NCBI GenBank assembly: GCA_965649205.1
Contig: CBFGJV010000001.1
Location: 19,285 to 83,284 of the forward strand
Direction: 5' to 3'
From: a candidate division WOR-3 bacterium
GTDB lineage: Bacteria; Hydrothermota; Tepidihabitantia; Tepidihabitantales; Tepidihabitantaceae
DNA: 64,000 nt
Positions 11,028 through 49,803 of this stretch are shown here, piece by piece. Below the pieces are notes generated by a model that worked only from the letters and a program-made list of their open reading frames with translations, made no database searches and was not told where the DNA came from. A program made the position numbers and the translations under genes. How positions within the stretch are numbered: the first letter of the stretch is position 1; each line of letters opens with the position of its first letter.

Positions 11028-11098
11028 ACCAATCCGAACGCTTTATGACCAGCTCGGGATTCCCCGGGCCGGTCTCGTTTTATATGGCAACCGCACTT

Positions 11099-11273
11099 GT
11101 CGGTAGGTGAGATTCGGAATGTCAACTGCTACTGTCAAGCGTAAGAACAAAACTTCCCGACTACGTGGTGTCGGTAGGTGAGATTCGGAATGTCAACTGC
11201 TACTTGGCACGACTCGGCAAAGCATTGCAGGCAGTGGGTGTCGGTAGGTGAGATTCGGAATGTCAACTGCTAC
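11099..11273 (+). CRISPR. CRISPR mini-array: 3 direct repeats of 34 bp (GTCGGTAGGTGAGATTCGGAATGTCAACTGCTAC) separated by 2 spacers (37 and 36 bp)
   Basis: Identical repeats at 11099-11132, 11170-11203 and 11240-11273. Spacers are 11133-11169 and 11204-11239. The repeat starts 5'-GTCGG and ends ...CTAC like Cas12b repeats (e.g. Alicyclobacillus GTCGG...GGCAC). It is adjacent to cas2-cas1-cas4-cas12b. Confidence 0.85.
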
Positions 11274-11339
11274 AGCGCGTGACCGAGGTTGTTGTTCCAT
11301 GCGAACTTGGAATGCATTTTGCGAGAATCTGCAGGAGGT

Positions 11340-11490
11340 GCGCCGCAAACTTTCAGTTTTGCAGGTATGCCTACTGACTAACTTCAGTTAGTAGCAAATC
11401 TTATTCTTCTGCGAGCATCCCTTGACCCCCGTTGCACCACCTGCATGCTCGCACTCCAGATTGTCAGAGAGCAGTTGACTTTCCTATTAT
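11340..11490 (+). ncRNA. candidate tracrRNA between array and cas2: two hairpins plus 3'-proximal anti-repeat
   Basis: Hairpin 11371-11394 (ctactgact...agttagtag, 9 bp with one G-U pair). Hairpin 11410-11418/11445-11453 (tgcgagcat/atgctcgca). Anti-repeat AGCAGTTGACtTTCC at 11470-11484 is complementary in 14 of 15 nt to the repeat segment GGAATGTCAACTGCT. Strand and exact ends are not resolved. Confidence 0.5.
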
Positions 11491-11619
11491 CTACCACTCG
11501 GTGCCAAGGCCGTTGAAGGCGACGACACGTTCCGAGTATTCTGCACCCCTCTAGGATGCGGTTTAAGTATATGTGCCGAAAGGAAATCGTCAAGTGTATC
11601 CGGAGTCGAGCTTCGGAGG

Positions 11620-11910
11620 TTAGACTATGATAGTGCGTTCTTCACCTTCCGGTAAGGGCTGTCCGAGATTCGTGGCAGCCTGGCGCGCCGCAGCTTCGTC
11701 CGCGCCGAGGTCTATAATCAGTGCCTGGTCTTCTTTGAGGTTCATGGCTTCCTCCAGGGCAGACTGCATACGTACGCGGTCAATCTCTTTTAGAGTGCAG
11801 AAGAAGACCGAGTACTGCCAGTGTTCTCCGTAGCCTTTCATTATCTTGAAGACCCGGCGCCAGCGCGCCGGGCTGGAGATGTCGTAACAGACAAGATAGG
11901 AGCGACGCAT
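11620..11910 (-). CDS. cas2: CRISPR-associated endoribonuclease Cas2
   Basis: MRRSYLVCYDISSPARWRRVFKIMKGYGEHWQYSVF matches the Cas2 fold signature. The ATG start overlaps the cas1 TAA stop (TAATG). Confidence 0.85.
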   Translation of the reverse strand: MRRSYLVCYDISSPARWRRVFKIMKGYGEHWQYSVFFCTLKEIDRVRMQSALEEAMNLKEDQALIIDLGADEAAARQAATNLGQPLPEGEERTIIV

Positions 11911-12896
11911 TAGCGAGTAGTCAGGAAGGAGAGAGTGGAGATTTCTCCTGTGAGCCACGCGGCGATCATCTTAGCGTGGAGATAAAGCATTCGGCGATAG
12001 CTCAAACGGTAGTCGAATACCGGATGAGTGACAATTGTATCCATTCTGCGCGCAAAGGCTTTGAAGAATGCTTTGCGGCCAGCTTCGGTGAAATTGCAGC
12101 CAGCCACAGTGTCGAGGAAGTGACCGCCGGTAAGTTCTTCTTTGTTGAATGCGGTGATGGCGATTGAGTCGGCGATGATGGGCCGAAATGGTTCCATCAG
12201 GTCTAGCGCCAGGGCGGGACGGCCGGGACGAGACACATGGAAACCACCGATGGAAGGTTCCAGCCGGGCCATTCTGAGCGCAGCGGCGCATTCAAGACAT
12301 AGCATTGAGTACGCCATCGAAAGGCAGGAGTTTACCGGATCAGGTGGTGGTCGGCGGGAGCGGCCGTTGGCGTCAAAGCGTGACGCTTCCGGCCCCTTGA
12401 GCATTCCGGCGAAATGCTGAAAGTACAGCGCAGCAGCCTGACCTTCGTGACTGCGCAGATTGTCAAGGGATTCGGCGACCCGGGCTTTTTCTACTTCCTG
12501 CGCCATTTGGGCCAGGACGGATGCAGGCAGAGAAGGATGGTTGCGCATCAGGACTGTGCGCTGATTCTGAATTTTGGCGGTGATGAGTGCGCGGGCGAGT
12601 TCCAGGCACTTTTCCGGACGGTCAAGTTGGCGCACTTGTTCCCGGCGCATCTTGGCACTGACCGAGTCCATAGGGTCGATCATTGCCACAAGCCTGCCAG
12701 CTGCGGAAAGATACGCTACTGGTACACATTGGTCGGCTAATGCATGAAGAGCCTGGGTAGAGACCTGCACCGGTCCGACAACAACAAGTCCTTCGAGCCC
12801 GGCGAGTGGAATCTGGCGTTGAGTTACACCCTTGCGGTCTATTACTTCAAGTGCCATCCCGGTGATGCCAATTCTCGTTCCTTGGGACAGTGCCAC
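11910..12896 (-). CDS. cas1: CRISPR-associated integrase Cas1
   Basis: Conserved C-terminal Cas1 block GRSRRPPPDPVNSCLSMAYSML...LDLMEPFRP. GTG start overlapping the cas4 TAG stop. 328 aa. Confidence 0.9.
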   Translation of the reverse strand: MALSQGTRIGITGMALEVIDRKGVTQRQIPLAGLEGLVVVGPVQVSTQALHALADQCVPVAYLSAAGRLVAMIDPMDSVSAKMRREQVRQLDRPEKCLELARALITAKIQNQRTVLMRNHPSLPASVLAQMAQEVEKARVAESLDNLRSHEGQAAALYFQHFAGMLKGPEASRFDANGRSRRPPPDPVNSCLSMAYSMLCLECAAALRMARLEPSIGGFHVSRPGRPALALDLMEPFRPIIADSIAITAFNKEELTGGHFLDTVAGCNFTEAGRKAFFKAFARRMDTIVTHPVFDYRLSYRRMLYLHAKMIAAWLTGEISTLSFLTTR

Positions 12897-13639
12897 TAGC
12901 TGAATACCCTCGTCACGGGGCGGCCACAGCTTGCGGGGTGTGGTTTGTTCAGTTTCGGTTTGGCCGCGCTGGAAGTTGATTTCGTCCGGCAGGCAGATGG
13001 GGAGAAGTGAACACCGGGGCAGCGCGGGTCATTGACGAGAGGGAGAGGGCGGGGGCCTTCGGCGCACTTCTTAGCCGCCTCAAGTATAGTCAGCGCTTCG
13101 TTGCGCAACTGCTGGTCAACCGGAATAGTGAGCTTGCGCTTTTCCTCAGCATAGTACAGCACCGCTTCATTCACTGTGTATCCAGCTTCTTCCAACAGAA
13201 GTGCCTGCAGTCCTACTTGAATCCGATCCGCAGGCCAAGGCGCAACTACCGTCAATGGTGGTGAATCTGCTTCTTCAGTCTCCTCGGGTGGTGGGGCGAT
13301 GGAAAGGTGTTTTGGCGCGCCTTTGCGGTATTCTACTGGTGTGGCCGTGTTACCAAAGATTTCAGCCAAGTCAAGAACGGCGCTGATCCCGAGCCGGGTA
13401 CTGGAAAGAGCGAGGGAACGGATGGATTTCGGTCTGTCCGGGTCTTCGTCAGATTCGGTCTCTTCTTTCCTGTCAGACGGAGCGCAGCTCGGTCGGTCAA
13501 CCCAGCGGTGGACCGCACAACCTTGCTCGGTGTCGGGTGAGGGCAGAAAGATGCCCTCAACTGCCATATAGTAGAATAGACGCGGGCAGTAGGCGTACTC
13601 GGCGACGTTGCGGCAGCCCCAGAGTTCAGACTCGCTCAC
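12896..13639 (-). CDS. cas4: Cas4 RecB-like exonuclease with Fe-S cluster
   Basis: N-terminal YCPR motif (AEYAYCPRLFYY), plus three C-terminal Cys (KKCAEG, RCPG, SACR) that complete a 4-Cys cluster. The gene sits between cas12b and cas1. Confidence 0.8.
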   Translation of the reverse strand: MSESELWGCRNVAEYAYCPRLFYYMAVEGIFLPSPDTEQGCAVHRWVDRPSCAPSDRKEETESDEDPDRPKSIRSLALSSTRLGISAVLDLAEIFGNTATPVEYRKGAPKHLSIAPPPEETEEADSPPLTVVAPWPADRIQVGLQALLLEEAGYTVNEAVLYYAEEKRKLTIPVDQQLRNEALTILEAAKKCAEGPRPLPLVNDPRCPGVHFSPSACRTKSTSSAAKPKLNKPHPASCGRPVTRVFS

Positions 13640-13642
13640 AGA

Positions 13643-16600
13643 CTACAGACCGGCCCACTCACGCAGGCGTTCAATAACCCGGAATTTCACCTTATTCCAG
13701 TACTCGATGGAGCTCTGCCAACTGTCGGATTCAATTGCTGCGGCTGACACATCGCGCCAGGCGTTGACCACGTCTTTGTCAACGGTTTCACTGAGTAGTT
13801 GCCCATTCAGGTCGAATGCCTTCGTACCCTTACACCTGTCCTTTGCCGGCTTGCCGTTCCTGCCGCAGGGGATCCACCACCACCTACCTGGCCAGTCCGG
13901 GTCCAGGAGCGCGCGCAGGCCGATGTTGGCGGCAGCATTGAGGTCGGCCTGGATGCCTTTGGACGCGGGCGAGTTTCTGTCCGCCGAGACGAAAAGTTCA
14001 CCTGAGCGGTCAAGAATCCGTACCAACTTTGTGTTGTCGGTGCAGCCGTCCCACTTCGCCTTGAGTGCTTCGAGGTACTCGTTTTCTGCTCCCGCGGCGT
14101 TTTTGACCAGCCGTTCGTAGCGCCTCAGGAATTCCGGCACAGGCAGGTCTGTGCATCTTGCGCCCGGCGCGCCGGTGCGGGAATCCTGCCGGGAGGTGTA
14201 ATTGGGTATTACTTGGCGGAGGTGCAGGCCATTCAATTCGCAGGCTTCTTTCAGATACCTGAGAACTTTTACCGCTGACCACTGCATCAATTGACGGTTC
14301 TCGCGGCGGGTGCGGATCTGCTCAGGTCGATAGGAATCCAGATTTTCAACCACAACGGCATGGCAGGGTTTAAAGCGAGGTTCGACGATTGGTTTCTGAG
14401 GCCGCTTACCCCCTTCCCAATGTTTCTTGTCTTCGGAACCGATGCCCAGCGCGGCTTCCACAATTCTGGAAGCCAGTTGTTTCACCCGGTTCTCGCGCAG
14501 ATGTTCTAGTGTATTAAGGACTCGCTGGCCGTAGTTATCCAATCGTATGTCCCCTTTTTCGGGTGTGTTTCTGCGAATGTCTTCCGGCTCCGGTCTTGTC
14601 GTGTACGCTTTCATGGCTTGCCACAATTCGCGGATGTTTGCGAGTCGGTCCAATGACAGGCCACCTACGTGTCGGATAGAGGCATCGGATTTCGGTCTGC
14701 CGCGGGGCAGTAGCCAGTTACGAAGCCAGCGAAGATGACCTTTCCATTGTTTGTCATCTTCGCGCCAACGTGTGGCCCAGATAGTGTGTAGCTTCATCCG
14801 TAACTGGGGATTGCCGGCTAGTTTCGCCGCATAGTCAGTCAGTAGTTTGCGAAGATTCCTATTGTAAGTCTTGAGGTCGGCTTGCGTTGCGTCTTCGCCT
14901 GGCGCGGGTGGAAGTTCCGCCTGCACGTATGTGTGCCACATTTCCTTGGCCCAGTCGTCGCGCCAGCGGGGGCTTTGGAACAGACTCTGCCAGAGTATCA
15001 GGGTGTCTTCTAGGAACTCTCGGCGCCTGTCCGAGGTCAATTCTTCCCAGCGGTCGCCTGGTAGCGGCTTCCGGTCGGTTTTCAGGTTAAAAGCAATTCG
15101 AGCTCGATCGCCATGGCGGCGAAGTCCGAGCCGGGCGGTGTGGACCGCATCAGCCATCAGGCTGACTATGTTGTGAGGCAGAGGGTTGTCTTTCGTTCGG
15201 ATGCGACCGAGCCAGGCTTCGAACTGCTGCACTGCTGCATATTCATCAGGCGATGCCTTCCGGCCGGTTTCATTTTCGCCCTGCAGTTTGATAAGGAATT
15301 GCCGGTCGAGTCTTGCCCACATATCCGGGCCGGTACGACGGTAAATTGTCCTAAGTCTCTTACCGTTTTGACTGAGGAGCAGATGCAGGGCAAGGTCACC
15401 GGGTTTCGGCGGCTTTCGCCCGGCCTCTACGCAGAGGCGGGTCATCTGCTCTTCGGTAAGGGTCTCCCAGACCGCACAGGCTGCCGCGTAGCGGTGGCCG
15501 AGGTCCAGTGATAGCACACGAAAGCCCGGGAATACGGCATAGCATAAGAGTGGCATGCCCTTTCCGTCCTTTATTGTCTTCAGCGTGCGGCCAGGCTTGC
15601 GGGTCCTCGTCCAGGTTGAGTCTGCGGGCCAAGGTTGCCCAAGGGCCGGCTTCCTGTGTCTGCAGGCGGCCAGAGAAGGTGATGAACCAGTTCAGGCCGT
15701 TGCGCATTTTAACAGCTTTTGCATCCCAGCCATGCTTCTGCACGCGTCTGGCTAGCCGGTCGAGCTGGGCGCGGGGCGCCTGCAGGCGGCCGTTCCAGTC
15801 CTTCTCGACGAATACATTTAGGACAAGCACAGCTGTTTCGCTGCCGATGCCGGCTGCGGCGCGGCTGAGTCGGTCGGCGCGGCTAACCCGGACACCATCC
15901 GGAGCCTGTTCTAACATTAGATCAGCAACAAGCCGCTTGGACTGCCAGAGCATTGCGGTTCTGCCAAGCGATGAGCCTGTTACGGTACGTAGCGTAAGCC
16001 GCCGGTCGGACAGGGCGGCGCGGAATCGCGCGCGGGCTTTTTCAAGTTGTTTCTGTGCCCTGAGTAGCTGGGTGGGCATTTTTTCACCAGTGGTTTCGCC
16101 ACAATACGCGAGAGACTGTTTTAATCCGTCCACTTTCAAAACCGCTTTCAGGCAGGAGTTCGCAGCTTTGTGTACGGCAAAAGAAATTGCCCAGCGAGAC
16201 TTGCCGTAGTCGCAGAACACCGGATGAGATAATGGATGAGGATGACGATAGGCCGGGACTTTGAAGCGGCGCATCTTCGCCTGGGCGTCGCGTGCGTTAA
16301 CATAGTCAAGGAGCGGCTGCGGGTCGGGTCTGCCGTTGCGCAACCAGACGATGCTGGCGCCTTCTGCAGACAATGCCTCGAACAGAGTTATGTCGCCGAA
16401 CTTCTCGATTTCGTCCTGCAGTTCTCTGGCCGCAGCCTTGCGGTCTTCGGCGGTGCGGCAGTCTCTTGCAGACCAGGCTTTCACAATTTCTTCCCAACTT
16501 TCTACCGCCCGGGGCTGAATTTGGAGCGGGCCGACCGCACCAGTCAGGCGGCCACGTTCTTCCAAGAATTCGTCCAGCCATTGTTCCACATCGGTCGGAA

Positions 16601-17816
16601 CCTGCTTTTGGGCCTGTTCCGCTAACTTCTGGCGGTTGGCTTCGGCCCGTTTTTGCCAGGAGTGGGCGGAGGAAACCCTCCTGAGTGCGAGATCCAGCAT
16701 TACCGAGTACTCGTCTGTCAGGTTCCGGCCACAGACAAAGGGTAGGCCGGTGGCTTTCTCGACGCGGGCGCGCAATGTCTCGGCCCATTTGGGCACGTTT
16801 CTAGCACCCTTTTTTATTTTCTCCATTTTCTCGTCGGCCTCGGCTGCCAGTTTGGCCTGCATAGTTGAGATCGTATCCGATGTTAGTACCGGCATGGCGT
16901 AAACTTTCTCAATAGCCAGTTTTCCCTGCGAGGGGCGACCTTTCCATCCGATGGCTTTGTAGATGCTGCTGAGCAAGTCTCCCTTTTCCGTCGCCTGAAG
17001 AAGTGTCAGAAGGTGGCTAGCCAAGGCAGAGCCGGACTGACCCTCGTAGTGGCTCAGGTCCGCAGTAGCAAGCGTGCGCAGCTTTTCTGCTATTCGCTCC
17101 AGGTCGCTTTTTTCTCCAGTTCCCCAACAGTTCACGATCCAGCTGCGAGCCTTCTCTCGAAATTTTGTTTCGTGCGCGGCCGCCGCGGTTGATCCGGATT
17201 CTGGTAGCTTGAGGAATTCGTCTAAGTCCCCAAATAACTCTCTAATCGCCGACTGCGCTTGTTCCCTGGTAAGGGTCTTATCGTTCTGCGCTTCCACGTC
17301 GAATGCCTTGGCGCGGTTGACCCAGACCGCGTCTTCTCGAATGGCGGCACAGAGCGAATCTTTGCAGTCGGCAACCCAGGTCTCGATTTCCTCCTTGGTC
17401 AGACCACGTGAGGCGAGAACTTCCTAGAGCGCGGCAACGATTTTGCACTTGCGGTCGGGCGCGGCGTCTTTGCCGGTGGCCACGATGTACTCGGCCGGAG
17501 CACCGTCGGCGGATTCAACCGAGAGCCAGGAAAGTGCGAGCATTATACGACGGTGACGAGTTTCTTGGTCGTCGGGACGGCGTTCGGTTTTCTTCTGGCC
17601 TTTTCCTTCGGTTACCGATAGCTCTGTAAGACGGTGGTCCAGACCACCGCGGAGGGTGAGGAGCCAGTCAGCGAAGACCTTGGTTCCCTTGTTGATTGTC
17701 TCGTGCGTACGCCATAGTGCCTCGCGCCAAGCCTCATCTTCGCTTCCTTCTCTGCCCGGTATGCCGCGCAGGCGCAGCGTGTAGGCCCGTTGGGTAATTG
17801 TCGCAGACGTCGTCAC
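13643..17816 (-). pseudogene. cas12b: cas12b (C2c1) type V-B effector, ~1390 codons, interrupted by an in-frame TAG (17424-17426) and a 1-nt frameshift near 15556-15563
   Basis: Three co-linear ORFs: 17816-17424, 17297-15396 and 15556-13643. The N-terminus LWRTHETINKGTKVFADWLLTLR resembles Cas12b LWKLHKEVNAGVRYYTEWLSLLR. RuvC-I is FRVLSLDLGHRYAAA, RuvC-II is AVVVENLDSYRP...RENRQLMQWS, and the Nuc/RuvC-III region is RCTDLP...WDGC...ADLNAAANIGLRAL; all three match Cas12b. The first and second ORFs share a frame, separated only by TAG. The second and third differ by +1, with the frames diverging at the homopolymer ccc/ttt (15558-15563). Confidence 0.85.
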
Positions 17817-17849: not shown

Positions 17850-18230
17850 GTGGGAAAATTGGATTTGTCAAGAGAGCGGCGGGAGGGTAGCAAGGTAGGC
17901 GGTTCGGGGAGCAGGAAGGGGATTACTCCACCAGGCGGCGGGCGGGGCGCATCAGAGGGCAGGAAGGATAGTAGGTCGCTGCATGGGAGAGTGGGCGGGT
18001 CGGTGAGGGACTCGGCGGGCGGGTGGGCTATTGGACGGGGGAGTTGCCGGGTCTGCGGCCGGGAGGACTACGGGGGATACGGACCGGTGGGCAGGTGGTG
18101 GAGTGGCTCAGGGAGCGGCGGAGCGGGCAGGAGACCGGGTTATCCGGAGAGCCACGGAGGGAGCCGCTGGGGGAGCTGGGGAGGGGGGTAACGGAGGATT
18201 TCAGGTATCAGATTGTGGTGCAAGGAGTTA
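17850..18230. repeat. G/A-rich, C-poor low-complexity tract (GGGNGGG, GGCGGGCGGG runs) in the divergent cas12b / HTH intergenic region
   Basis: The plus strand is dominated by G runs, i.e. the cas12b-sense strand is C-rich. The ORF-track protein here is Gly-rich nonsense. On the cas12b-sense strand the tract shares CCGCCCGCC/CCCACCC motifs with the 45.6-kb C-rich tract. Confidence 0.6.
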
Positions 18231-18255
18231 GGTCGCTAAGAAGCCTTGCGGACCG

Positions 18256-18273
18256 TAATACTAATGAGTATTA
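18256..18273. promoter_or_regulatory. near-palindromic operator TAATACTAATGAGTATTA 10 bp upstream of the XRE regulator start
   Basis: 9+9 inverted repeat with one mismatch. A perfect version, TAATACTCATGAGTATTA, recurs at 62189-62206. Confidence 0.6.
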
Positions 18274-18283
18274 TCAAGTCTGT

Positions 18284-18646
18284 ATGGGCCGCAGGTATGT
18301 GCAGGATTCTTTCTACTTCCCGCAGGCGCTGGGCGAGCGGCTGCGGGAGCTTAGGCTGCGGGCGGGCCTGACCCAGAAGGAGCTGGCAAGTATGGCCGGG
18401 CGGGAGTTTCGGGGCGGGCAGGCCATGGTGAGCAGGCTGGAAAGAGGCCGCATTCGGAGCCCTTCTTTGCGGTTGGTGGCGGATTTTCTGCGGGCCTGTC
18501 GAGCGAGTTTTGACGACATCCGCGATGTCCTGCACGCCTACACGGCGCAGCCATTGGTGGCGGAGAAGCGGGCAAGAAGGGCGGTGCAGAGACTGGTGGA
18601 GGTTTTGCCGGAGGGTGTGGCGGGAAGGTGGATAAGTACGATGTGA
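18284..18646 (+). CDS. XRE-family helix-turn-helix transcriptional regulator
   Basis: HTH_XRE signature LRELRLRAGLTQKELASMAG...VSRLERG. ATG at 18284. The upstream part of the ORF-track frame is G-rich non-coding. Confidence 0.75.
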   Translation: MGRRYVQDSFYFPQALGERLRELRLRAGLTQKELASMAGREFRGGQAMVSRLERGRIRSPSLRLVADFLRACRASFDDIRDVLHAYTAQPLVAEKRARRAVQRLVEVLPEGVAGRWISTM

Positions 18647-19425
18647 AGACGGCAGTGTGGCGTCGGCACCAGGGAGATTTGCCGGAGGCAGAGGCGGCAC
18701 GGTTGGAGAGAGTGAGGGGAATGGCTCAGCAGTTGCTTTTGCGGCAGAAGTTGGAGGAGAGGTTGCATATTGCCCTGAATCATATCGGCGCCAGGCGGGG
18801 CGGGCCGGCAAGAAAGGCGCTGGCCGATTTTGGTCGCAAGGTTTGGGCTATTTTGCGCCGAACGCGGGCGCAGCCAAAGAAGAGGGCGTACCTTTTGTCT
18901 GAGGCGGGCGAGAAGCTGAGGCAGGAACGGGTGGTGACAGACGAGGCCATACGTTATATCGAAACCGTGACGTGCGAGCTTTTTGCGGAGCTGGAGCAGA
19001 AGGGCGAGTTGGATCGCTTGCCGAGCGTAGAGGTCACAGAGGGGCTGCTGGCCAAAAGGGCGGGGGAGCGAGTTATGCGAGATGAGCAGATGTGCGCGGA
19101 GGAGTGGAGAAAGCAGTTGCGGGAGTACGAGCAGGCGCGGGAGCGAATGCTGAGACAGGTGCTGGACGAAGCGAGACCGTTGTTTGCGGAGAAGGGAAAG
19201 CAGGAGGAGGTATTCTATATTGGCGTGGTAAGAGGTTGTTTGTATGCGGCGCAACGGACGCGGGCGGGGAGTAAAGAGCGGGAGCAGGCAACAGAGGAAG
19301 CGTTGCAAGTGGTACGCAGGAAAGGGCTGGATGTAGAGTTGGCGCGACAGGTGGCCGAGTTTGCCTTGCGCAGGTTTGACGAGTTGCTGCGTTTTCTCCC
19401 GCCGAATCCCCGGACGCAGCTCTGA
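18628..19425 (+). CDS. hypothetical Arg/Glu-rich alpha-helical protein (265 aa), operonic with the HTH regulator
   Basis: GTG start overlapping the HTH gene end by 19 nt in another frame. Highly charged, coiled-coil-like composition with no recognisable motif. Confidence 0.45.
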   Translation: MDKYDVKTAVWRRHQGDLPEAEAARLERVRGMAQQLLLRQKLEERLHIALNHIGARRGGPARKALADFGRKVWAILRRTRAQPKKRAYLLSEAGEKLRQERVVTDEAIRYIETVTCELFAELEQKGELDRLPSVEVTEGLLAKRAGERVMRDEQMCAEEWRKQLREYEQARERMLRQVLDEARPLFAEKGKQEEVFYIGVVRGCLYAAQRTRAGSKEREQATEEALQVVRRKGLDVELARQVAEFALRRFDELLRFLPPNPRTQL

Positions 19426-19483
19426 GCGAAGCGCGGAAATGACATTTGTTTGACGGCGGTGGAGTTTCTCTTACACTTGGGCT

Positions 19484-20149
19484 ATGAGTGAAATTTTGCG
19501 TCGAATTGCCCGAGCAGTGGAGTCAGGTCACAGCGATGCTGCATCGCCGTATCCGCCAGATATGGTGGGTGAGCCTGGCGTAGATGAACTGACTCGGCAG
19601 GCTTTGGCAGAAGGCATACAGGTAAGGCGGTTGTTGTATGAGGGTCTGGTGGCGGGAATGAAGGCTATTGGCGAGAGGTTCAGCGAGGGGAGTGCGTTTC
19701 TGCCCGAGGTTCTGATGGCGGCGCGGGCTTTGGCTGCGGGCTTTACACATCTGCAGCCGTACTTTTCGTCTGGCGCAGTGAAGCATAAGGGGACGGTGAT
19801 TCTGGGTACAGTACAGGGCGACTTGCACGATATCGGCAAGAAGATTGTGGGTCTGTTTTTTAACGGGGCAGGGTGGAGAGTGGTGGATTTGGGCGTGGAT
19901 GTGCCGCTGGAACGGTTTCTGGCCGCAATCGAGGAGCACAAGCCGCAGGCAGTGGGCTTGAGCACGCTCTTGACTACGACTATGCCGAGCATGGCAAAGA
20001 TTACGGCTGGCATAAAATCCCGGTATCCAGAGTTGAAGGTGGTGGTAGGGGGTGCGCCTTTGACTGCTGAGTTTGCCGCCAGCATAGGGGCGGACTTTTA
20101 TGGCGCGGACCCGCAGATGGCCTTAGACTATCTGGACGGTGCGGTATGA
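19484..20149 (+). CDS. corrinoid (cobalamin-binding) protein, MttC/MtbC-like
   Basis: B12-binding DxHxxG motif (QGDLHDIGKKIV) and a Rossmann B12 domain. ~220 aa, typical of methyltransferase cognate corrinoid proteins. Confidence 0.85.
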   Translation: MSEILRRIARAVESGHSDAASPYPPDMVGEPGVDELTRQALAEGIQVRRLLYEGLVAGMKAIGERFSEGSAFLPEVLMAARALAAGFTHLQPYFSSGAVKHKGTVILGTVQGDLHDIGKKIVGLFFNGAGWRVVDLGVDVPLERFLAAIEEHKPQAVGLSTLLTTTMPSMAKITAGIKSRYPELKVVVGGAPLTAEFAASIGADFYGADPQMALDYLDGAV

Positions 20150-21231
20150 CGAGCAGGGAAGTTATTACCGCGTTGGTGAGGGATAAGGAATGTCCCGAAC
20201 GAGTGGGGCATCAGGAGAGTTTTTGGGAGGACTTGCGACCGGCCTGGGAAGAGCAGGGGTTGCCGCGCGAGGGCCGCATGCAGGAGATTCTGGACTTGGA
20301 TATTATTCCCATAAACGAAGAGTGGACCAGCACCGAGGCGCGAGTGGGCTACAGGCGAATTCTGGAGGAGACAGAAACAACCTATGTGGAAGAGAACGGT
20401 TGGGGTTCGGTGATGCGTTATTGGAAAGGAAAGTCTGGCACCCCAGAGCATCTGTCCTTTGCCCTGACCGACGAGAAGGTATGGAAGGAGAAGTACCGGG
20501 ACCTTTTGACGAGTTTTGATATCCGCCGTCTGGGAGACCTGGAAAGATTGAAGAAGAGGTATCGCGAGCTGGAGTCTTCGGACAAGTTCCGGGTTTACGA
20601 GGTGCTGCAGATATTTGAGATAATGCGGCAGGCGATGGGCGATGTGATAATGCTGGAGGCGATGTGTTTGAATCCGGCCTGGATAACGGATTTCTGCACG
20701 GTAATGACCGATAACATCATTATGCACCTGGAGTATGAGATACGGGAGGTTGGCCTGCCGGACGGTATCTGGTTCTATGAGGACCTGGGTTATCGGCATC
20801 TGCCTTTTGTCTCGCCGCAGATGTATAGAGACCTTCTGCTGCCGCATCACCGTCGGTTTGTGGATTTCTGTCACAGTTATGGTCTGCCGGTGATAATGCA
20901 TACCTGCGGCAATATCGCTCCTCTCTTTCCTTATCTTCTGGAAACGGGTATAGATTGTTTGCAGCCGCTGGAAGCCAAGACCGGGCAGAATTTTATCAAG
21001 ATGGCCGAACTGGCTTCCCGGCGCATAGCTTATATGGGGAATATGGATATCCGGGCGTTTGAGACTAATGACCCGCAGGCCTTGGCGGCAGAAATTTTGC
21101 CCAAGCTGCAGGCGGCGATAGAGAAACGGATACCTTACATTTTCCATTCCGACCACAGTATTCCCCGTACGGTCAAGCTGGCCACCTATCGCTACGCCCG
21201 AGCGTTGGTTGATGAGTACGGTCGTTACTGA
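20146..21231 (+). CDS. uroporphyrinogen-decarboxylase-family methylcorrinoid methyltransferase (MtaA/MtbA/MtgA-like)
   Basis: 361 aa with URO-D fold features. The context between a corrinoid protein and an MttB-family gene indicates a corrinoid:acceptor methyltransferase. Confidence 0.65.
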   Translation: MTSREVITALVRDKECPERVGHQESFWEDLRPAWEEQGLPREGRMQEILDLDIIPINEEWTSTEARVGYRRILEETETTYVEENGWGSVMRYWKGKSGTPEHLSFALTDEKVWKEKYRDLLTSFDIRRLGDLERLKKRYRELESSDKFRVYEVLQIFEIMRQAMGDVIMLEAMCLNPAWITDFCTVMTDNIIMHLEYEIREVGLPDGIWFYEDLGYRHLPFVSPQMYRDLLLPHHRRFVDFCHSYGLPVIMHTCGNIAPLFPYLLETGIDCLQPLEAKTGQNFIKMAELASRRIAYMGNMDIRAFETNDPQALAAEILPKLQAAIEKRIPYIFHSDHSIPRTVKLATYRYARALVDEYGRY

Positions 21232-21246
21232 AACTGAGGGGGAAAA

Positions 21247-22707
21247 ATGAGACCAAAGTTGAAGCTGCTTAGCGAGGGACTTGTTGAGCAGATTGTAGCC
21301 GAGGCACTGGACCTGCTGGCCGTGTTGGGAGTAGAAATAAACAACCCCGGGCTGGTTGAACTGCTGTTGGCCCAGGGCGCAGAATGGGATACCGAGAAGA
21401 AAAGGTTGCTGTTGCCCGAGTCCATGGTGAGGCAGGCTTTGGCTGCTGCTCCGTGTTCGTTCCGGTTGTATGATGTGCGAGGGGAGATGACAAATGAACT
21501 GGGGGGTGATAATGTGTATTTCACCCCGGGTTCTGCGGCGTTGAACATTCTGGATGCAGATACCGGCGAGATGAGACGACCACAGACGCGTGATTACGTG
21601 CAGTATGCCAAGCTGGTGTCGCGTTTAGAACACATTGCGGCCCAGTCCACAGCCCTGATACCGGCAGATGTGCCGGAGAAGATTTCGGACAGCTATCGGT
21701 TGTATCTGTCGTTGCTGTTCTGTGAGAAGCCGGTGGTTACCGGCTGTTTTACGATAGAGTCCTTTCGAGTAATGAAGGAAATGCAGGTGGCGGTGCGGGG
21801 TTCTGAAGAGGAGCTTGTCGCCCGGCCCCTGACCATTTTTTCCTGCTGTCCGACCGCGCCTCTGAAGTGGAGCGAGGTGACTTCGCAGAATGTGGTGGAT
21901 TGTGCGCGGGCCGGTATCCCGGTGGAGTTTATCTCCATGCCTTTGTCCGGCTTTGTGGCGCCTGTCACCCTGGTGGGCACTTTGATTCAGCATACGGCGG
22001 AGACCCTGTCGGGTGTGGTTATCAGTCAAACAGTCGCGCCGGGTTCGCCGATTCTTTATGGCGGTTCGCCGGCGATTTTTGATGTGCGCCGAGAAACTAC
22101 CCCGATGGGCGCCATAGAGACGATGATGATTGACTGTGCCAGTGCAGAAATAGGTAAGTACCTGGGTTTGCCCACGCAGGCTTACATCGGTCTTTCCGAC
22201 GCGAAGCTGCTGGACGCACAAGCCGGGCTGGAAACAGGCATCGGCGCAGTTCTGGCCGCCTTGGCAGGCGTGAACAGCGTGTCTGGTCCGGGCATGCTGG
22301 ATTTTGAGAGTTGTCAGAGTCTGGAGAAGCTGGTGCTGGATAATGAGATATGCGGCATGGCGCTGCGGCTGGTGCGGGGTATTGAGCCGCACGAGGACTT
22401 TCCGGCCTTGAATCTTTTCACCGAACTGTTGAGTGAGAAACATTTGCTTATCAGTCCGCATACCAGGCGCTGGCTGAAGACAGAGCACTACTTTCCCGGG
22501 CCGGTGATAGACCGGGCAAACAGAGGACGCTGGCAGGCTGCCGGTAGTCCTACTCTTTTGGCACGGGCGCGCCGGGAAAAGGAGCGCTTGATCGCCAGCT
22601 GGCAGCCGTCCCGTCTGGCAGAAGAGACAAAAAAGGAACTTACCCGGCTGATGACCACAGAGGCCCGGCGCTGGGGGATGGAACAGCTGCCAGAACTGCC
22701 CGCATGA
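21247..22707 (+). CDS. MttB-superfamily (non-pyrrolysine) quaternary-amine:corrinoid methyltransferase (MtgB/MtqB-like)
   Basis: 486 aa, the length and architecture of the trimethylamine methyltransferase family. Uninterrupted ORF with no in-frame amber codon. GGGAAAAATG RBS. Confidence 0.75.
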   Translation: MRPKLKLLSEGLVEQIVAEALDLLAVLGVEINNPGLVELLLAQGAEWDTEKKRLLLPESMVRQALAAAPCSFRLYDVRGEMTNELGGDNVYFTPGSAALNILDADTGEMRRPQTRDYVQYAKLVSRLEHIAAQSTALIPADVPEKISDSYRLYLSLLFCEKPVVTGCFTIESFRVMKEMQVAVRGSEEELVARPLTIFSCCPTAPLKWSEVTSQNVVDCARAGIPVEFISMPLSGFVAPVTLVGTLIQHTAETLSGVVISQTVAPGSPILYGGSPAIFDVRRETTPMGAIETMMIDCASAEIGKYLGLPTQAYIGLSDAKLLDAQAGLETGIGAVLAALAGVNSVSGPGMLDFESCQSLEKLVLDNEICGMALRLVRGIEPHEDFPALNLFTELLSEKHLLISPHTRRWLKTEHYFPGPVIDRANRGRWQAAGSPTLLARARREKERLIASWQPSRLAEETKKELTRLMTTEARRWGMEQLPELPA

Positions 22708-23432
22708 GACGAGTATTGCGTTTTGCCGCACAGGACTGCAGACCGAGCGAGGAGATGATACTTGCAGGAGAGGGAATGCCCGGCCGGGCTGGAGCGCAAC
22801 CCGAAACCTTGCGGCTGGTGGTTGAAGCCGGGGAATTGTACGAGAGGCTGGCTGCACCGGTGGCCGTGTACGCCAAGATCAGTCGCGAGGAATTCGGCAG
22901 GGTCTTTGTCGGCGAAGGTCGTAATGCGCCAGATGCAGTGCTGGGCAGGATTTATCCCCAGGCGGTCCGTTTGGCTCTTTTTGCCTGTACGGTGGGGAAG
23001 GCTTTGACAGACGAAATCACGCGGCGTTTTGAGCAGCACGATTATGCTCTGGGCTATGTGCTGGATGCTGTGGCTTCGGCTGGAGTGGAAAAATTGGCTG
23101 CACTGGTGGAGGCTGAATACTGCAGGGAAAACAGAGAACAGAAGTCTGGCGGGGAGGATTCGAAAACGGTGCTGAGGTATAGTCCGGGTTACTGCGGCTG
23201 GCATGTGAGCGGCCAGCGCAAGCTGTTTGAGTTTCTCCATCCGGAGGAGATTGGCATTACTCTGCGCGAGAGCTTTCTGATGGAGCCTTTGAAGTCGGTC
23301 TCGGGCGTGTTTGTGGCCGGGCCGGCCGCAATCCACCGTTTTCAGCCGGCTACATTCGTCTTTTGCGCAGAGTGTCGTCAACCGAGCTGCACAGAACGGT
23401 TGGCAGAACTAGAACAACGAACTGGGAGGTGA
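22704..23432 (+). CDS. methionine-synthase activation (AdoMet reactivation) domain protein
   Basis: LRYSPGYCGW...LRESFLMEPLKSVSGVFVAGP aligns to the MetH C-terminal block RPAPGYPACPE...LTESFAMWPGASVSGWYFSHP. Confidence 0.7.
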   Translation: MRRVLRFAAQDCRPSEEMILAGEGMPGRAGAQPETLRLVVEAGELYERLAAPVAVYAKISREEFGRVFVGEGRNAPDAVLGRIYPQAVRLALFACTVGKALTDEITRRFEQHDYALGYVLDAVASAGVEKLAALVEAEYCRENREQKSGGEDSKTVLRYSPGYCGWHVSGQRKLFEFLHPEEIGITLRESFLMEPLKSVSGVFVAGPAAIHRFQPATFVFCAECRQPSCTERLAELEQRTGR

Positions 23433-23436
23433 CAGA

Positions 23437-24075
23437 GTGGAATTGCTGCAGCAGATAGCAGACAGTCTGTGCGCAGGAGAATCAGAACGGGTAGCGCAGC
23501 TGACCCGTCGGGCACTGGATGCCGGCCTTGCGGGCCGCGAGGTCCTGGACAAAGGGTTGCTTGCCGGTATGGACCGGGTAGGCAGGTTGTTTCAAGAGGA
23601 AGAAGTGTTCCTGCCGGATGTGTTGCTTGCGGCCAAGGCGATGTATGCCGGGTTGGAGGTGCTGAAGCCTTTGTTGGAGCAGCAGGGGACAGGCGCGGCC
23701 GCCGGCAAGGTGGTTATCGGGACTGTGCAGGGTGATTTGCACGACATAGGCAAGAATCTGGTGACTATCATGCTGCGGGGCGCAGGGTTTGAGGTGATTG
23801 ACTTGGGCAATGACGTGGCACCGGAGAAATTCATTCAGGTGGCGTGCGAGCAGAATTGTCAGATTATAGGCATGTCCGCACTTCTGACTACTACGATGCC
23901 CGTAATGGGAGAGGTATGCGAGTTGCTGAGAGAAAAAAATCTTGCCGGCAGGATAAAGACGATAATCGGCGGTGCACCGGTGAGCGAGGCTTTTGCCCGC
24001 GAGATAGGGGCGGATGCTTACTGTTATGACGCAGCAGCGGCGGTTGCAACTGTCAAACGTCTTCTTTCTCAGTGA
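23437..24075 (+). CDS. second corrinoid (B12-binding) protein, MetH B12-domain-like
   Basis: DxHxxG motif QGDLHDIGKNLV. 212 aa. Located between the activation-domain and Hcy-domain genes. Confidence 0.85.
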   Translation: MELLQQIADSLCAGESERVAQLTRRALDAGLAGREVLDKGLLAGMDRVGRLFQEEEVFLPDVLLAAKAMYAGLEVLKPLLEQQGTGAAAGKVVIGTVQGDLHDIGKNLVTIMLRGAGFEVIDLGNDVAPEKFIQVACEQNCQIIGMSALLTTTMPVMGEVCELLREKNLAGRIKTIIGGAPVSEAFAREIGADAYCYDAAAAVATVKRLLSQ

Positions 24076-25013
24076 AAACAGACGAACAGGGAGGTAAGAC
24101 GTTGTCCAGACGGGAAAGGCTGTGGGAACGGGTGAGGTCTGGTCAGGTTCTCCTTGCCGATGGCGCACTGGGTTCTTTGCTGCTGGCGAAGGGTTTGAAA
24201 CCCGGGCAGGCACCTGAAGAATTGTGTCTTTCTCGGCCGGAAGTTCTGGCTGAGATTGTACGTCTTTACCAGGAGGCGGGCGCAGAGGTTTTTCAGGCGA
24301 ATACCTTTGGTGCGTCGCCTCTGAAGCTGGAGCAGCACGGTTTGGCCGAAAAAATGGAGGAGATAAACCGGCAGGCGGTAAGAATCGTGCGGGAAGTGGT
24401 GGGGGAGGAGGGGTATGTATGGGCTTCGGTAGGTCCTTCCGGTCGTCTACTGGAACCGTACGGAGATGTCTCAGCCGAAAGGATGTATGAGAATTTTGCC
24501 CGGCAGACAACCGTGTTGGCAGAAGCCGGTGCGGACATTATCGCCATTGAGACTATGACCGATCTGGCCGAGGCAAAGCTGGCGCTGGCAGCCGCCGTGG
24601 ATACTGGCAGAGCCAGCGGGGCGGTGATTACGGTTTCCCTGACTTTCGAAAAGCGGCGCCGAGGGTTCTTTACGGTCATGGGCAACTCCATCGCTGATGC
24701 CGTTGCCGCTTTGGCTGACGCAGACATGATTGGCTCTAACTGCGGCAATGGTATGGATAATATGGTGGAGATTGCCCGAGAGTTCCGCCGGCTGACGGAT
24801 AAGCTGCTGGTAATCAGACCGAATGCCGGTCTGCCTGAAATTCGCAACGGTGCGGTTGTGTATCCGGAGACGCCAGAGTTTATGGCCGAGCGGATTCCGG
24901 CACTTCTGGAATGCAAGCTGGGTATTCTGGGAGGTTGTTGTGGCACGACGCCTGAGCATATACGTGCCTTCCGGCGGGTACTGGAGAAAGAACAGAGCAG
25001 ACGGTCGGGTTAG
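24072..25013 (+). CDS. homocysteine S-methyltransferase domain protein (MetH N-terminal Hcy-binding domain-like)
   Basis: ADGALGSLLL (compare MetH LDGGMGT) and the zinc-binding GGCCGTTPEHI motif near the C-terminus. Confidence 0.8.
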   Translation: MKTDEQGGKTLSRRERLWERVRSGQVLLADGALGSLLLAKGLKPGQAPEELCLSRPEVLAEIVRLYQEAGAEVFQANTFGASPLKLEQHGLAEKMEEINRQAVRIVREVVGEEGYVWASVGPSGRLLEPYGDVSAERMYENFARQTTVLAEAGADIIAIETMTDLAEAKLALAAAVDTGRASGAVITVSLTFEKRRRGFFTVMGNSIADAVAALADADMIGSNCGNGMDNMVEIAREFRRLTDKLLVIRPNAGLPEIRNGAVVYPETPEFMAERIPALLECKLGILGGCCGTTPEHIRAFRRVLEKEQSRRSG

Positions 25014-25918
25014 CGGATGCGAATCTCTATCTTGGAGAATTTGGGTTTCAGCCCAGGGATGAAGCGGGGAACCACCTGTAGGGCTTTCGCTGGCAGCACC
25101 ATGCGTTTGGTGAGTTCTGTCTGGAGAGCTGCACAACGGGCAGTGGAGAGTTTTTCCTGTTCGGTGTACACATATACTACGAGGTCTTTGCGGAACTGCT
25201 TTTTGATAACATTGGCTACTTCGTCCAAACGCCGGCCGGCCTGATCCAGCAGTTCGGCGCTACCTGAAGCAAAGATCAGGTCTGCCGCCAGAGATACAAC
25301 CCATTCGTCTTGTTCTTTGTACACGATTCCATTTATGCGCTGCGGTGAGACCGGTGTGCGGGTCTGGTTGCCATGCGCGTCGTAGGCGCTGAAGGTAAAG
25401 CTGTATATTTCGCCCGGAGAAATCATTTCGCCGTTGTCCATGCGTCCGTCCCAGGTAATCATAGCCGGTGGCCTGCCTTTGCGGCTCAAACGGCGGACAG
25501 TTTCGCCCAGGGAATTAGCTACTACCAATTCCCAAGAAACGACTTGCTCTTGGAAGTCGGGCATAAAGATGATTACGTCGCCGTAAATAAGGTCGCGCTC
25601 CACCGGTATGCGCAGATAGGAGGAGTGGATAAACTGATGAGGTATGGTCAGAGAGTCAATGGTGCGAAGCAGAGGGGGATCGAATATGTAACTCTGCGAA
25701 ATAAACAGGCTGTCAACTGGAGAGAACGGGTCGAAGCTGGGACTGAGAAACAGTTTGCGGTCTTCGACTTTTATCTCGGCCTGGCCGGTAATTACCTCTT
25801 CGCCTAGGCCGTGTTCAGCGGGCGGCTGGGCGGTAGCCGGTTTTGCAGAGTCGGGTGTGGCAGTTGCAGGCCCAGGGCCTGTCTGGGCTACAAGCAGGGC
25901 CAGTAGCAAATGAAGCAT
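25010..25918 (-). CDS. secreted protein with C-terminal OmpA-like peptidoglycan-binding domain
   Basis: Signal peptide and a Pro/Ala-rich linker. C-terminal FASGSAELLDQAGRRLDEVANVIKK...VYVYTEQEKLSTARCAALQTEL resembles the OmpA C-terminal domain. Last gene of the Ton operon. Confidence 0.55.
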   Translation of the reverse strand: MLHLLLALLVAQTGPGPATATPDSAKPATAQPPAEHGLGEEVITGQAEIKVEDRKLFLSPSFDPFSPVDSLFISQSYIFDPPLLRTIDSLTIPHQFIHSSYLRIPVERDLIYGDVIIFMPDFQEQVVSWELVVANSLGETVRRLSRKGRPPAMITWDGRMDNGEMISPGEIYSFTFSAYDAHGNQTRTPVSPQRINGIVYKEQDEWVVSLAADLIFASGSAELLDQAGRRLDEVANVIKKQFRKDLVVYVYTEQEKLSTARCAALQTELTKRMVLPAKALQVVPRFIPGLKPKFSKIEIRIR

Positions 25919-30901: not shown

Positions 30902-32224
30902 TTATTCCCCGGGCTTTATTTCTACTTTACCCCTAGGGCCGCGAGTAAGTATTTCCGTGAGCAACCCGGAACACTCCAGGGAGTTGTTGCGCACATCAAT
31001 GACGACTATGTTGTAGTAGTACCGTCCGTCAGCCACAAGTCGGCCGGAATCATCCAGACCGTCCCAGCTGATGCGCAATGGCGGGTTGTCCCACCCCTGA
31101 AAAGTGCGTACTAGCTCGCCGTAGCTGTTCTTTATGAGAATCTGCCAGCGTTTAGGTCGGGCTCGCGGCTGAAGCCGCACGTCCATCCAGAGGACGTTTC
31201 TGTCGTTGTCTGGTGTGGGTCTGAACACGGCCGGGGTAGCCTCTATCCAGACGCGGAAGCCAGAAAATCCAAGGTAGAGCCCGGCTTTATGGGTAGGGGC
31301 TAGGCGATAGCGGGATTGGTGATGAAGCAGAACGGCGTAATCAACGCCTATAGACATCCTGCCCCAAGACTTGTGAATACCCAATCCTAGACTCAGGTCA
31401 TTGGGGTCCATGCCGATCCGTTGATAGAGTACATCGGGCACGAGTTCGATTTCTGCCCCTCCTCGCAGCGCAAAGCGCGGAGTAAAGTTGCGCGTGGGGT
31501 TACCTAGTTCATCCCGGTTATAGAGCAGAGGCAGGGAAACGTCTGCAGTAAGAAGAGCGCGGCCACCGAGTAGGTGTACTGCGGTTCCAGCACGCAGGAT
31601 ACGTGGATAGTTTTCCGGCAAAGTAGCTAGCTGCAATCGAGGCTGGAGCACATTTTGAAAGCAGAGGCCGAAGCTCAGAGGCGAAGGTCTAGTGAGGAGA
31701 ATGCCCAAATCTGCTCCCAGGCCGACGGCAGAATACTGCGCCATGTTTTTGGAAACGAGCTTGCCTGTCATTCCTAGTCCGAGGAAGTTAGTAGGGTTGT
31801 AGCAGTACGACATCAGGTAAGAATTCTCCAAATAAAAGAAATTTTGGTAGGGATAGTTGTCAGGGGTACGCGACTGCAGTCCACCGGCCCAGTAACTGGC
31901 TAGGTTCACGCCGAAGGTACCCCAGTCTCGGGTAGGAAGAGCGTAGGCGATGTATTCCATCTGCGCGCCGTAGAGCTGAGAGTGGGCGAGTACCACTTCG
32001 TTGGCGTTCAGCTGAAACAGACCACCAGGGTTGAAGTAGACTGCCTGTACGTCGTCAGCCAGAGCGGTGAAAGCCTTACCCAGGGCCAGACTGCGGGGTG
32101 ACGGAGCGTAGGAGAGCATGGCACCGGGCAGACCACCTTCTGCGTAGAGCAGAGTAAAGAGACAGAAAAAACAAGTCAGACAGAGGCCAACGTGTGTGTG
32201 GGTACTCCTTGCCTGTCTTACCAT
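30902..32224 (-). CDS. FadL/PorV-superfamily outer-membrane beta-barrel protein with C-terminal FlgD/Ig-like domain
   Basis: ATG at 32224 immediately after the upstream gene stop, and a signal peptide. Motif LGKAFTALADDVQAVYFNPGGL parallels the YWNPAGL motif of the other barrel. C-terminal ISWDGLDDSGRLVADGRYYY resembles an Ig-like fold. Confidence 0.5.
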   Translation of the reverse strand: MVRQARSTHTHVGLCLTCFFCLFTLLYAEGGLPGAMLSYAPSPRSLALGKAFTALADDVQAVYFNPGGLFQLNANEVVLAHSQLYGAQMEYIAYALPTRDWGTFGVNLASYWAGGLQSRTPDNYPYQNFFYLENSYLMSYCYNPTNFLGLGMTGKLVSKNMAQYSAVGLGADLGILLTRPSPLSFGLCFQNVLQPRLQLATLPENYPRILRAGTAVHLLGGRALLTADVSLPLLYNRDELGNPTRNFTPRFALRGGAEIELVPDVLYQRIGMDPNDLSLGLGIHKSWGRMSIGVDYAVLLHHQSRYRLAPTHKAGLYLGFSGFRVWIEATPAVFRPTPDNDRNVLWMDVRLQPRARPKRWQILIKNSYGELVRTFQGWDNPPLRISWDGLDDSGRLVADGRYYYNIVVIDVRNNSLECSGLLTEILTRGPRGKVEIKPGE

Positions 32225-43205: not shown

Positions 43206-43297
43206 AGTTTTAGCTTAGAGTCTTGGCGATGTTGTCGGCTAATACTGTCTCGGTGAAGCATCCTAATGCTCTGTTTCTTTTGGGTGAGCTAGCAGCA

Positions 43298-49681: not shown

Positions 49682-49803
49682 CGTATCGTTACGGGAGTCT
49701 GTCTGACCGGGTTTGACAGGGCTGGTTGCCGGCCTAGAATAATTTTTAGACTATCTAGGACCGTAGGTTGCATAAACAAATTAAGAAGAAAGGAAGAAAG
49801 TAC

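Follow-up and report, generated by a model that had tools for sequence, protein, structure and literature searches.

A pyrrolysine-free MttB homologue encoded with MetH-type modules: a proposed corrinoid-dependent methyl donor:homocysteine methyltransferase in a candidate division WOR-3 bacterium

The DNA analyzed here, referred to below as the window, is a stretch of 64,000 nucleotides (64 kb) from contig CBFGJV010000001.1 of a candidate division WOR-3 bacterium. On its plus strand, positions 19484-25013 hold six open reading frames (ORFs), g1 to g6, which run in one direction and overlap or almost touch, with gaps of −4, +15, −4, +4, and −4 bp from g1 to g6. Junctions of −4 to +15 bp are the usual signature of a single transcription unit, and we therefore treat the six genes as one. 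The original prediction, made from the sequence without database searches, had described this co-directional arrangement as it is found, and had read the genes as a corrinoid methyltransferase module of the quaternary-amine type joined to a split cobalamin-dependent methionine synthase (MetH). We consider it reasonably probable that g3-g6 encode a self-contained, four-protein, corrinoid-dependent methyl donor:homocysteine methyltransferase, that is, a MetH in which the pterin barrel has been replaced by a pyrrolysine-free MttB barrel. Williams et al. (2022, Environ Microbiol, PMC9324843) have already published a four-gene cluster of this kind from metagenome-assembled genomes (MAGs) of Electryoneota and from “diverse bacteria”, together with the hypothesis of corrinoid-dependent, folate-independent methionine synthesis.

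The six genes and their proteins

Pfam searches return the families that had been named for the six genes. The first, g1 (19484-20149), encodes a corrinoid protein with a cap domain (B12-binding_2) and a Rossmann domain (B12-binding), and the second, g2 (20146-21231), a divergent member of the UroD superfamily whose URO-D match (59 bits) covers the C-terminal half only. They are followed by g3 (21247-22707), a non-pyrrolysine methyltransferase of the MttB superfamily (MTTB, PF06253, 258 bits); g4 (22704-23432), a separate activation protein of the MetH type, predicted to bind S-adenosylmethionine (AdoMet or SAM; Met_synt_B12, PF02965, 47 bits); g5 (23437-24075), a second corrinoid protein (B12-binding_2, PF02607, and B12-binding, PF02310); and g6 (24072-25013), a homocysteine-binding zinc domain of the MetH type (S-methyl_trans, PF02574, 212 bits). 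The short motifs quoted earlier for these genes are all present, with conservation in homologues, namely DLHDIG, an instance of DxHxxG, in both g1 and g5, RYSPGYCGW in g4, and GGCCGTTPEHI in g6.

The MTTB domain occupies residues 3-469 of the 486 residues of g3, which aligns end to end with the structures of MtgB and MttB. The ORF has no in-frame stop, and the position taken by pyrrolysine in Methanosarcina barkeri MttB (Pyl334) aligns with Leu316, encoded by CTT at 22192-22194. Against TIGR02369, the model for pyrrolysine-dependent MttB, g3 scores 362 bits, below the cut-off of 525, and there is no pylT in the window. The earlier statement that g3 lacks an amber codon is therefore correct, and g3 is not a trimethylamine enzyme of the kind that requires pyrrolysine. 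An Rfam PYLIS_3 match at 22192-22291 (+) starts at the Leu316 codon and scores 39.9 bits (gathering score 38). Of 26 homologous loci, 14 show this match at the corresponding position (L015, L019, L030, L040, L041, L051, L053, L055, L061, L066, L069, L075, L078, and L082). We rejected it as a sign of pyrrolysine use, because the codon is CTT, the residue is Leu in all 81 members of the clade, and the window has no pylT; the model seems to recognize a conserved coding sequence homologous to true mttB rather than a pyrrolysine-specific RNA element.

The only solved relative of g4 is TM0269 of Thermotoga maritima (1J6R), a separate MetH reactivation protein. The motif of g4 reads RYSPGYCGW...LMEPLKSVSGV, and four of its cysteines are invariant across 51 sequences, one (C164) within SPGYCGW and three (C221, C224, and C229) within a C-terminal CxxCxxxxC motif. 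TM0269 lacks at least C164, having GD in place of C164-G165. The four cysteines of g4 possibly form a metal site (structural zinc) or an Fe-S center. Among the best 150 representatives, no fusion of g4 with other modules was found, and all are separate proteins of about 190-290 residues.

The carrier g5 finds its best matches in the Protein Data Bank (PDB) in 1Y80 (194 bits) and MttC (7XCN_M, 157 bits), with the B12 domain of MetH behind (109 bits), and it scores 208 bits against TIGR02370; DLHDIGKN and SALLTTT are conserved in its homologues. The two corrinoid proteins of the operon are 41% identical to each other, and both score best or near-best on MtgC-type corrinoid models, below the cut-offs. 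From these matches we propose that g5 is the MttC/MtgC-type methyl carrier of the core module. The best PDB match of g6 is the homocysteine domain of T. maritima MetH (1Q7M, 204 bits; BHMT 54, HMT 49), and the cysteine triad for zinc (GSNCG and GGCCG) is conserved in 45 family members. We accordingly propose g6 as the methyltransferase that would pass the methyl group from CH3-Co(III) to homocysteine (MT2), and g3 as the one that would take it from the donor and load it onto Co(I) of the carrier (MT1).

Three MetH-type modules are thus encoded as separate proteins, and the predicted absence of a pterin module is borne out for the window. A Pfam scan of about 36 ORFs (the six of the cluster plus the 30 largest of the rest), and a tblastn search of the whole window with the four E. 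coli MetH domains and MetF, revealed no pterin-binding or MetF/MTHFR gene in the 64 kb, and no RamA-like protein is present among the ORFs scanned with Pfam.

A four-gene cassette across about 15 phyla

Homologues of g3 number in the thousands at about 70% identity. We scanned one genome per species with g3 as the seed and took 80 loci, which are the best matches to the query, a choice that biases their range of identities; partner genes were sought in them by tblastn with g1-g6. A second scan, of metagenome contigs, was seeded independently with an alignment of g4 and gave another 80 loci. The species loci span about 15 phyla and come from Planctomycetota, Gemmatimonadota, Acidobacteriota, WOR-3, Zixibacteria, Marinimicrobia, Calditrichota, and KSB1, as well as from Ignavibacteria/Bacteroidota, Cloacimonadota, Lentisphaeria, Verrucomicrobiota, Eisenbacteria, Fischerbacteria, Acidimicrobiia, and Rhodospirillales.

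All four genes, for the MttB homologue and the activation, corrinoid, and homocysteine proteins, are present in 45 of the 80 species loci, in the same order except for two loci with the activation gene before the MttB gene. Later genes are missing from nine loci, eight of which are cut by a contig end and one of which (L050) has 10 kb of room; the activation gene is absent from five; the corrinoid gene is the sole partner in eight; and the MttB gene stands alone in 13, mostly from Pirellulales. The metagenome scan gives the same picture from the other side: an MttB homologue lies directly upstream of g4 in 60/60 loci with at least 600 nt of sequence there, and all four genes are found in 44 of the 80. 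Chance cannot account for the arrangement, given that dozens of unrelated genomes share this gene order. When all flanking ORFs were clustered, no other neighbor family recurred in more than six of the 80 species loci, and the cassette is therefore self-contained and sits in unrelated contexts. The module had been described as one of six genes; its conserved unit is the four genes g3-g6, and g1 and g2 lie outside it. By its matches, this unit is a chimera, in which MT1 and the carrier belong to the methylamine-methyltransferase type and MT2 and the protein for reactivation to a Thermotoga-like MetH type.

The g3 clade is 63-72% identical across about 15 phyla, with means of 71-72% within phyla and 67-70% between phyla. 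This pattern indicates strong constraint, frequent horizontal transfer, or both. The nearest named relatives of the Mfd protein encoded in the window all belong to candidate division WOR-3, with 52-59% identity, which marks the organism as a divergent WOR-3-like bacterium. One NCBI contig encodes an MttB homologue 74% identical to g3 and, apparently on the same contig, an Mfd with 56% identity. From this comparison, g3 seems to be more conserved than a housekeeping marker, or to have been exchanged more recently.

The neighborhoods also bear on an unlikely alternative, in which g4-g6 would be an ordinary split MetH fed with methyl-tetrahydrofolate (CH3-THF or methyl-THF) by a pterin subunit encoded elsewhere, g3 being an extra catabolic or salvage input as in the MtgBCDE system. 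Such a division exists in Ruegeria pomeroyi, where MtgC serves both MtgB and MtgE, and where the pterin protein MtgD is essential and unlinked to mtgE (PMC12478193). However, tblastn found a pterin domain of the E. coli MetH type in 0/166 neighborhoods extending up to ±7-10 kb, while among the first 86 loci the same search recovered 54 with the homocysteine domain and 73 with the B12 domain. A split MetH of general use should sometimes adjoin pterin genes, whereas the g4 subfamily is next to an MttB gene in every locus with room for one. In Ruegeria-type systems, moreover, mtgE is usually unlinked to mtgB, and reactivation is by RamA/DUF1638 and not by a MetH activation domain.

The pair g1-g2 adjoins the cassette in none of the scanned species or metagenome loci; stray URO-D matches, all weak, are confined to L008 and L010, where they lie downstream, and to L081, where the match is on the opposite strand. 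The six-gene order was found again in one Logan contig (L089), whose proteins are 81-82% identical to those of the window, and another locus (L090) has a corrinoid and URO-D pair without the cassette. Since g1-g2 adjoin the cassette only in the window and in L089, we take the six-gene form to be a two-gene unit that became attached, in this lineage specifically, to a widespread cassette.

The best NCBIfam score of g2 against MtaA/MtbA is 36 bits, against a cut-off of 244, and no PDB entry is matched by sequence. The AlphaFold (AF2) model of g2 (pLDDT 95.7) has the UroD fold and matches uroporphyrinogen decarboxylases and Methanosarcina mazei MtaA equally well (TM-score ~0.7, 13-19% identity). 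H252-x-C254-G and D336-H337-S338 are invariant. Compared with the His-Cys-Cys zinc site of MtaA and MtbA, H252-x-C254 is present and the position of the third ligand is D336/H337, not Cys. The invariant His and Cys residues suggest a zinc site, and g2 is a putative zinc-dependent corrinoid methyltransferase and partner of g1. The label “MtbA/MtgA-like” in the original prediction is thus apt at the level of the superfamily for MtaA and MtbA, and it fails for MtgA. That protein is a THF-binding TIM barrel (PMC7154762), a different fold family, and we rejected g2 as its analogue for this reason. More distant homologues of g2 (53% identity) are encoded in L092 (3946-9086) and L093, where two paralogues flank rhamnose-catabolic genes (RhaA, FGGY kinase, class II aldolase) with no corrinoid protein near. 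Functions other than corrinoid methyl transfer are therefore conceivable for the g2 family, as is an action on methylated sugars.

The URO-D and homocysteine families together prompt a further alternative, in our estimate highly improbable, in which the system is not a methionine synthase at all. Either g6 would methylate another thiol or a selenol, or a methyl-sulfur donor would serve another acceptor, with g1 and g2 acting in a methyl-sulfur or selenium pathway. PF02574 does include enzymes with other donors and acceptors, such as BHMT and HMT, the His-x-Cys motif of g2 is typical of thiol-activating zinc sites, and UroD-family “Mlp” proteins that pair with corrinoid proteins have been proposed for methyl-sulfur or methyl-selenide metabolism (PMC10418091). 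Yet the homocysteine domain of true MetH is by far the closest match of g6, and since almost every cassette lacks g1-g2, the core function cannot be defined by that pair.

The methyl donor of the g3 clade

To our knowledge, a substrate has been assigned to only a minority of the thousands of MttB homologues without pyrrolysine. The clade of g3 has many members of broad phylogenetic range, which annotation routinely mislabels as trimethylamine methyltransferase. Its profile scores 243 bits against pyrrolysine-containing MttB, 231 against MtgB, and 142 against the Sinorhizobium meliloti homologue (4YYC), from which we take the clade to be separate and, if anything, slightly nearer to true MttB.

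The earlier assignment of g3 to the glycine-betaine or quaternary-amine type is not supported by a comparison of active sites. In MtgB, mutagenesis and a betaine-bound crystal structure have established that Y97, R312, H348, and F356 are each required for activity, with Y97 and F356 gripping the trimethylammonium group by cation-π interactions and R312 and H348 gripping the carboxylate; R312 is kept in the enzymes for carnitine, proline-betaine, butyrobetaine, and phosphocholine (Picking et al., JBC 2026, PMC13080624). In a HMMER alignment, the four residues correspond in g3 to S96, Q311, a one-residue deletion beside S346, and E354. These replacements are essentially invariant in the clade: among the 81 members, S96 is found in 79, Q311, L316, D352, and F353 in all 81, and E354 and C356 in 80 each.

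It is accordingly quite unlikely that glycine betaine, or some other acidic quaternary amine already known, serves as donor and that the system is a B12-dependent betaine:homocysteine methyltransferase. This alternative draws on the fact that all MttB-superfamily members without pyrrolysine that have been characterized use quaternary amines (PMC8604678, PMC12155760), on the Gly-Leu that g3 shares with MtgB at the pyrrolysine position, and on the leaning of g1 and g5 towards MtgC-type models, though under the cut-offs. Against it stand the replacement of all four betaine-binding residues, an identity of only 30% between g3 and MtgB, and the slightly higher profile score on pyrrolysine-containing MttB. 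Furthermore, no betaine transporter and no dimethylglycine or sarcosine catabolic gene recurs in the clustered flanks of the 80 species loci. Glycine betaine is probably not the donor of g3, and since two acidic residues have come into the pocket and the Arg/His pair is gone, acidic quaternary amines are argued against as a group.

The same residues can be read in another way, which we regard as very unlikely, namely that the g3 barrel itself binds a methylated pterin (CH3-THF or another one-carbon carrier) and that the system stays folate-dependent. Asp, Glu, and Gln, which are invariant in the g3 pocket, are residue types to which pterins are hydrogen-bonded elsewhere among enzymes. The extreme conservation of g3 would suggest a universal metabolite as substrate, and an fhs gene elsewhere in the window shows that the organism uses folate. 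In addition, MttB and MetH's folate domain are both TIM barrels that offer a methyl group to cobalamin (PMC13080624). However, no member of the MttB superfamily is known to use a pterin (PMC8604678, PMC12155760), and with a dedicated pterin domain universally available, and full-length MetH encoded in the MAGs already described, there would be little reason for such a replacement.

Returning to a donor other than folate, the altered pocket of g3 (Gln311, Asp352, Glu354, and Cys356) weakly favors a cationic, non-acidic methylated compound. A permease of the APC family recurs in six of the 80 species loci, and in four it directly flanks the cassette on the same strand (L065, 8487-9809; L068, 4816-6141; L075, 2119-3447; L076, 13615-15072). 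The permeases of L065, L068, and L076 resemble antiporters for basic amino acids or polyamines, with 307-344 bits on TIGR00905, below its cut-off of 409. They provide a weak lead hinting at a cationic amine as substrate.

A proposed methyl-transfer cycle and its setting

From the domain families we infer each of the catalytic steps, which acceptor is used, and in which direction the methyl group moves. In the proposed mechanism, g3 would take a methyl group from a small non-folate donor and methylate Co(I) on g5; g6 would bind homocysteine, activate it with zinc, and transfer the methyl group from CH3-Co(III)-g5 to form methionine; and g4 would restore g5 from the Co(II) state through AdoMet-dependent reductive methylation. 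The logic of the cycle is presumably the same as in MetH. The products of g1 and g2, co-transcribed ahead of the cassette, would probably add a second branch for a methyl donor or acceptor. The route to methionine that bypasses methyl-THF, which the original prediction had suggested, is the best explanation for the gene content and is strengthened by the synteny, whereas its chemistry is read from protein families. More tentatively, and with less than even confidence, we suggest that g3-g6 represent a B12-dependent, folate-independent class of methionine synthase that uses a cationic, non-acidic methylated amine as donor, has spread horizontally over at least 15 phyla, and has a four-cysteine metal or Fe-S center in g4. 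Candidate donors under this suggestion are protonated tri- or dimethylamine, choline, or a methylated polyamine, which could be held by Asp352 and Glu354 in place of pyrrolysine or Arg.

Several observations weigh against the cassette as a self-contained methionine synthase. In 26 of the 80 species genomes, at least one partner is not near the MttB gene (13 with MttB alone, eight with the corrinoid gene only, and five without the activation gene). The 64-kb window is part of a genome, with which an unlinked pterin-binding gene would be compatible, and the pterin domain was sought in the neighborhoods with a single E. coli query. In g4, SPGY is invariant, and Arg158 of the RxxxGY motif for AdoMet is present in 32 of 51 homologues. 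Rfam searches upstream, covering the window and 26 loci, gave tRNA and PYLIS_3 matches only and neither a SAM nor a cobalamin riboswitch, so that regulation offers no clue. Our literature search found no biochemical or genetic test of any cassette member. Finally, the MAGs with the cluster described by Williams et al. also encode full-length MetH (PMC9324843), and the system therefore need not be a housekeeping enzyme; judged by the refuting condition that the original prediction had set, it is more likely an alternative methionine synthase than the sole one.

The closest published counterpart is that of Williams et al., compared here by its description: the same four families are co-located, without pyrrolysine, and its MttB clade is somewhat nearer to MttB than to MtgB (PMC9324843), in agreement with our profile scores. 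That account is one paragraph of in-silico inference and does not include the pair of corrinoid and UroD-fold genes that the window adds. What we contribute beyond it is the active-site comparison against betaine, the invariant four-cysteine site, and the quantified synteny; the operon of six genes, with its UroD-fold pair, seems not to have been described before. The MtgBCDE system of Ruegeria pomeroyi and the split MetH of Phaeobacter inhibens likewise combine an MttB-family enzyme with separate corrinoid and homocysteine proteins around one carrier (Mausz et al. 2025, PNAS, PMC12478193), and MtgBCDE ties demethylation of a methylated amine to methionine synthesis as the cassette would. It has, however, a pterin-binding MtgD for both functions, RamA/DUF1638, a betaine-specific MtgB, and an mtgE that is usually unlinked (PMC12478193), whereas the cassette has no pterin gene nearby, activation of the MetH/TM0269 type, none of the betaine residues, and four tightly linked genes.

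Similarity to MetH is greatest for T. maritima, in which TM0268 is accompanied by the separate activation protein TM0269, and extends to the homocysteine domain of g6, to g4, and to the corrinoid domain with DxHxxG. The cassette differs in having no folate domain, in having all modules separate, in a g5 that is nearer to the carriers of methylotrophs, and in the four invariant cysteines of g4. In Desulfitobacterium hafniense (MtgB/MtgC/MtgA) and Eubacterium limosum (MtpB, MtcB, MtyB, and MthB with MtqC/MtqA), an MT1 of the MttB superfamily and an adjacent corrinoid protein form a three-component relay as well. There, the acceptor enzyme is a THF or coenzyme M (CoM) methyltransferase, reactivation is by the ATP-dependent RamQ/RamA (PMC8604678, PMC12155760), and the substrates carry an acidic group bound by R312, which is absent in g3. 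The MesA-MesD proteins of the core-MetE type also make methionine without methyl-folate, with methyl-corrinoid proteins as the probable source of the methyl group (Price et al. 2021, PMC7857596). They differ from the cassette in having a MetE-like catalytic subunit instead of a MetH homocysteine domain, and no MttB component; MttB is not mentioned in that study.

If the proposal is correct, many uncultured lineages of sediments, soils, and the sea, among them WOR-3, Zixibacteria, Marinimicrobia, Gemmatimonadota, Planctomycetota, and Acidobacteriota, could make methionine, and hence SAM, directly from a methylated compound of the environment or the cell without methyl-THF. Metabolic reconstructions would then change in what they say of methionine auxotrophy, B12 demand, and the turnover of methylamines and osmolytes, and the automatic label “trimethylamine methyltransferase” would be corrected for the clade. 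This label has already led to inferences on trimethylamine use and mercury methylation (PMC12484752). Because the genomic partners define the acceptor, homocysteine, and the reactivation chemistry, only the donor of the g3 clade would be left to find.

The surroundings of the operon are of a different kind. A candidate promoter, TTGACG-16-TACACT, lies ahead of g1 at 19450-19477 (+); it is weak, matching 9/12 positions of a sigma-70 consensus that may not be that of the host. Upstream lie a gene for an XRE-type helix-turn-helix (HTH) protein (18023-18646) and a 265-residue ORF with no family match (18628-19425), and the segment 17800-20000, which spans the upstream side of the operon, has a high GC skew (0.34) and imperfect G-rich repeats. 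The next gene after g6 (25010-25918, minus strand) is convergent with the operon. The fhs gene, which had been taken to link the cluster to one-carbon and folate metabolism, is real (52128-53792) and lies 27 kb away. We rejected it as support for a one-carbon operon, because unrelated genes on both strands lie between, namely TonB/ExbBD-like genes, genes for secreted proteases, mfd, genes for an electron transfer flavoprotein (ETF), and a sigma/anti-sigma pair.

Two further loci of the window are on the minus strand. A type V-B CRISPR-Cas locus (11096-17816) comprises an array of three 37-nt repeats (11096-11273), a possible cas2 (11620-11958), cas1 (11910-12896), and cas4 (12896-13639), along with a Cas12b/C2c1 gene split over three consecutive ORFs (13643-15556, with a RuvC-like domain; 15396-17297; and 17424-17816), which suggests a frameshifted pseudogene or assembly errors. 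At 41208-45045, genes for ETF beta and alpha precede one for a 665-residue protein that binds FAD/NAD and carries two 4Fe-4S domains of the ferredoxin type; together they may form an electron-bifurcating or FixABCX-like unit, which is unlinked to the cluster. Many predicted secreted proteins of the window have a C-terminal domain of the FlgD_ig type (1077-2852, 25010-25918, 30902-32437, 49768-52053, and others). Peptidases of families S8, M14, and C25 are among them, and together with a PorV-like gene (9978-11027) they point to type IX-like secretion and a proteolytic lifestyle.

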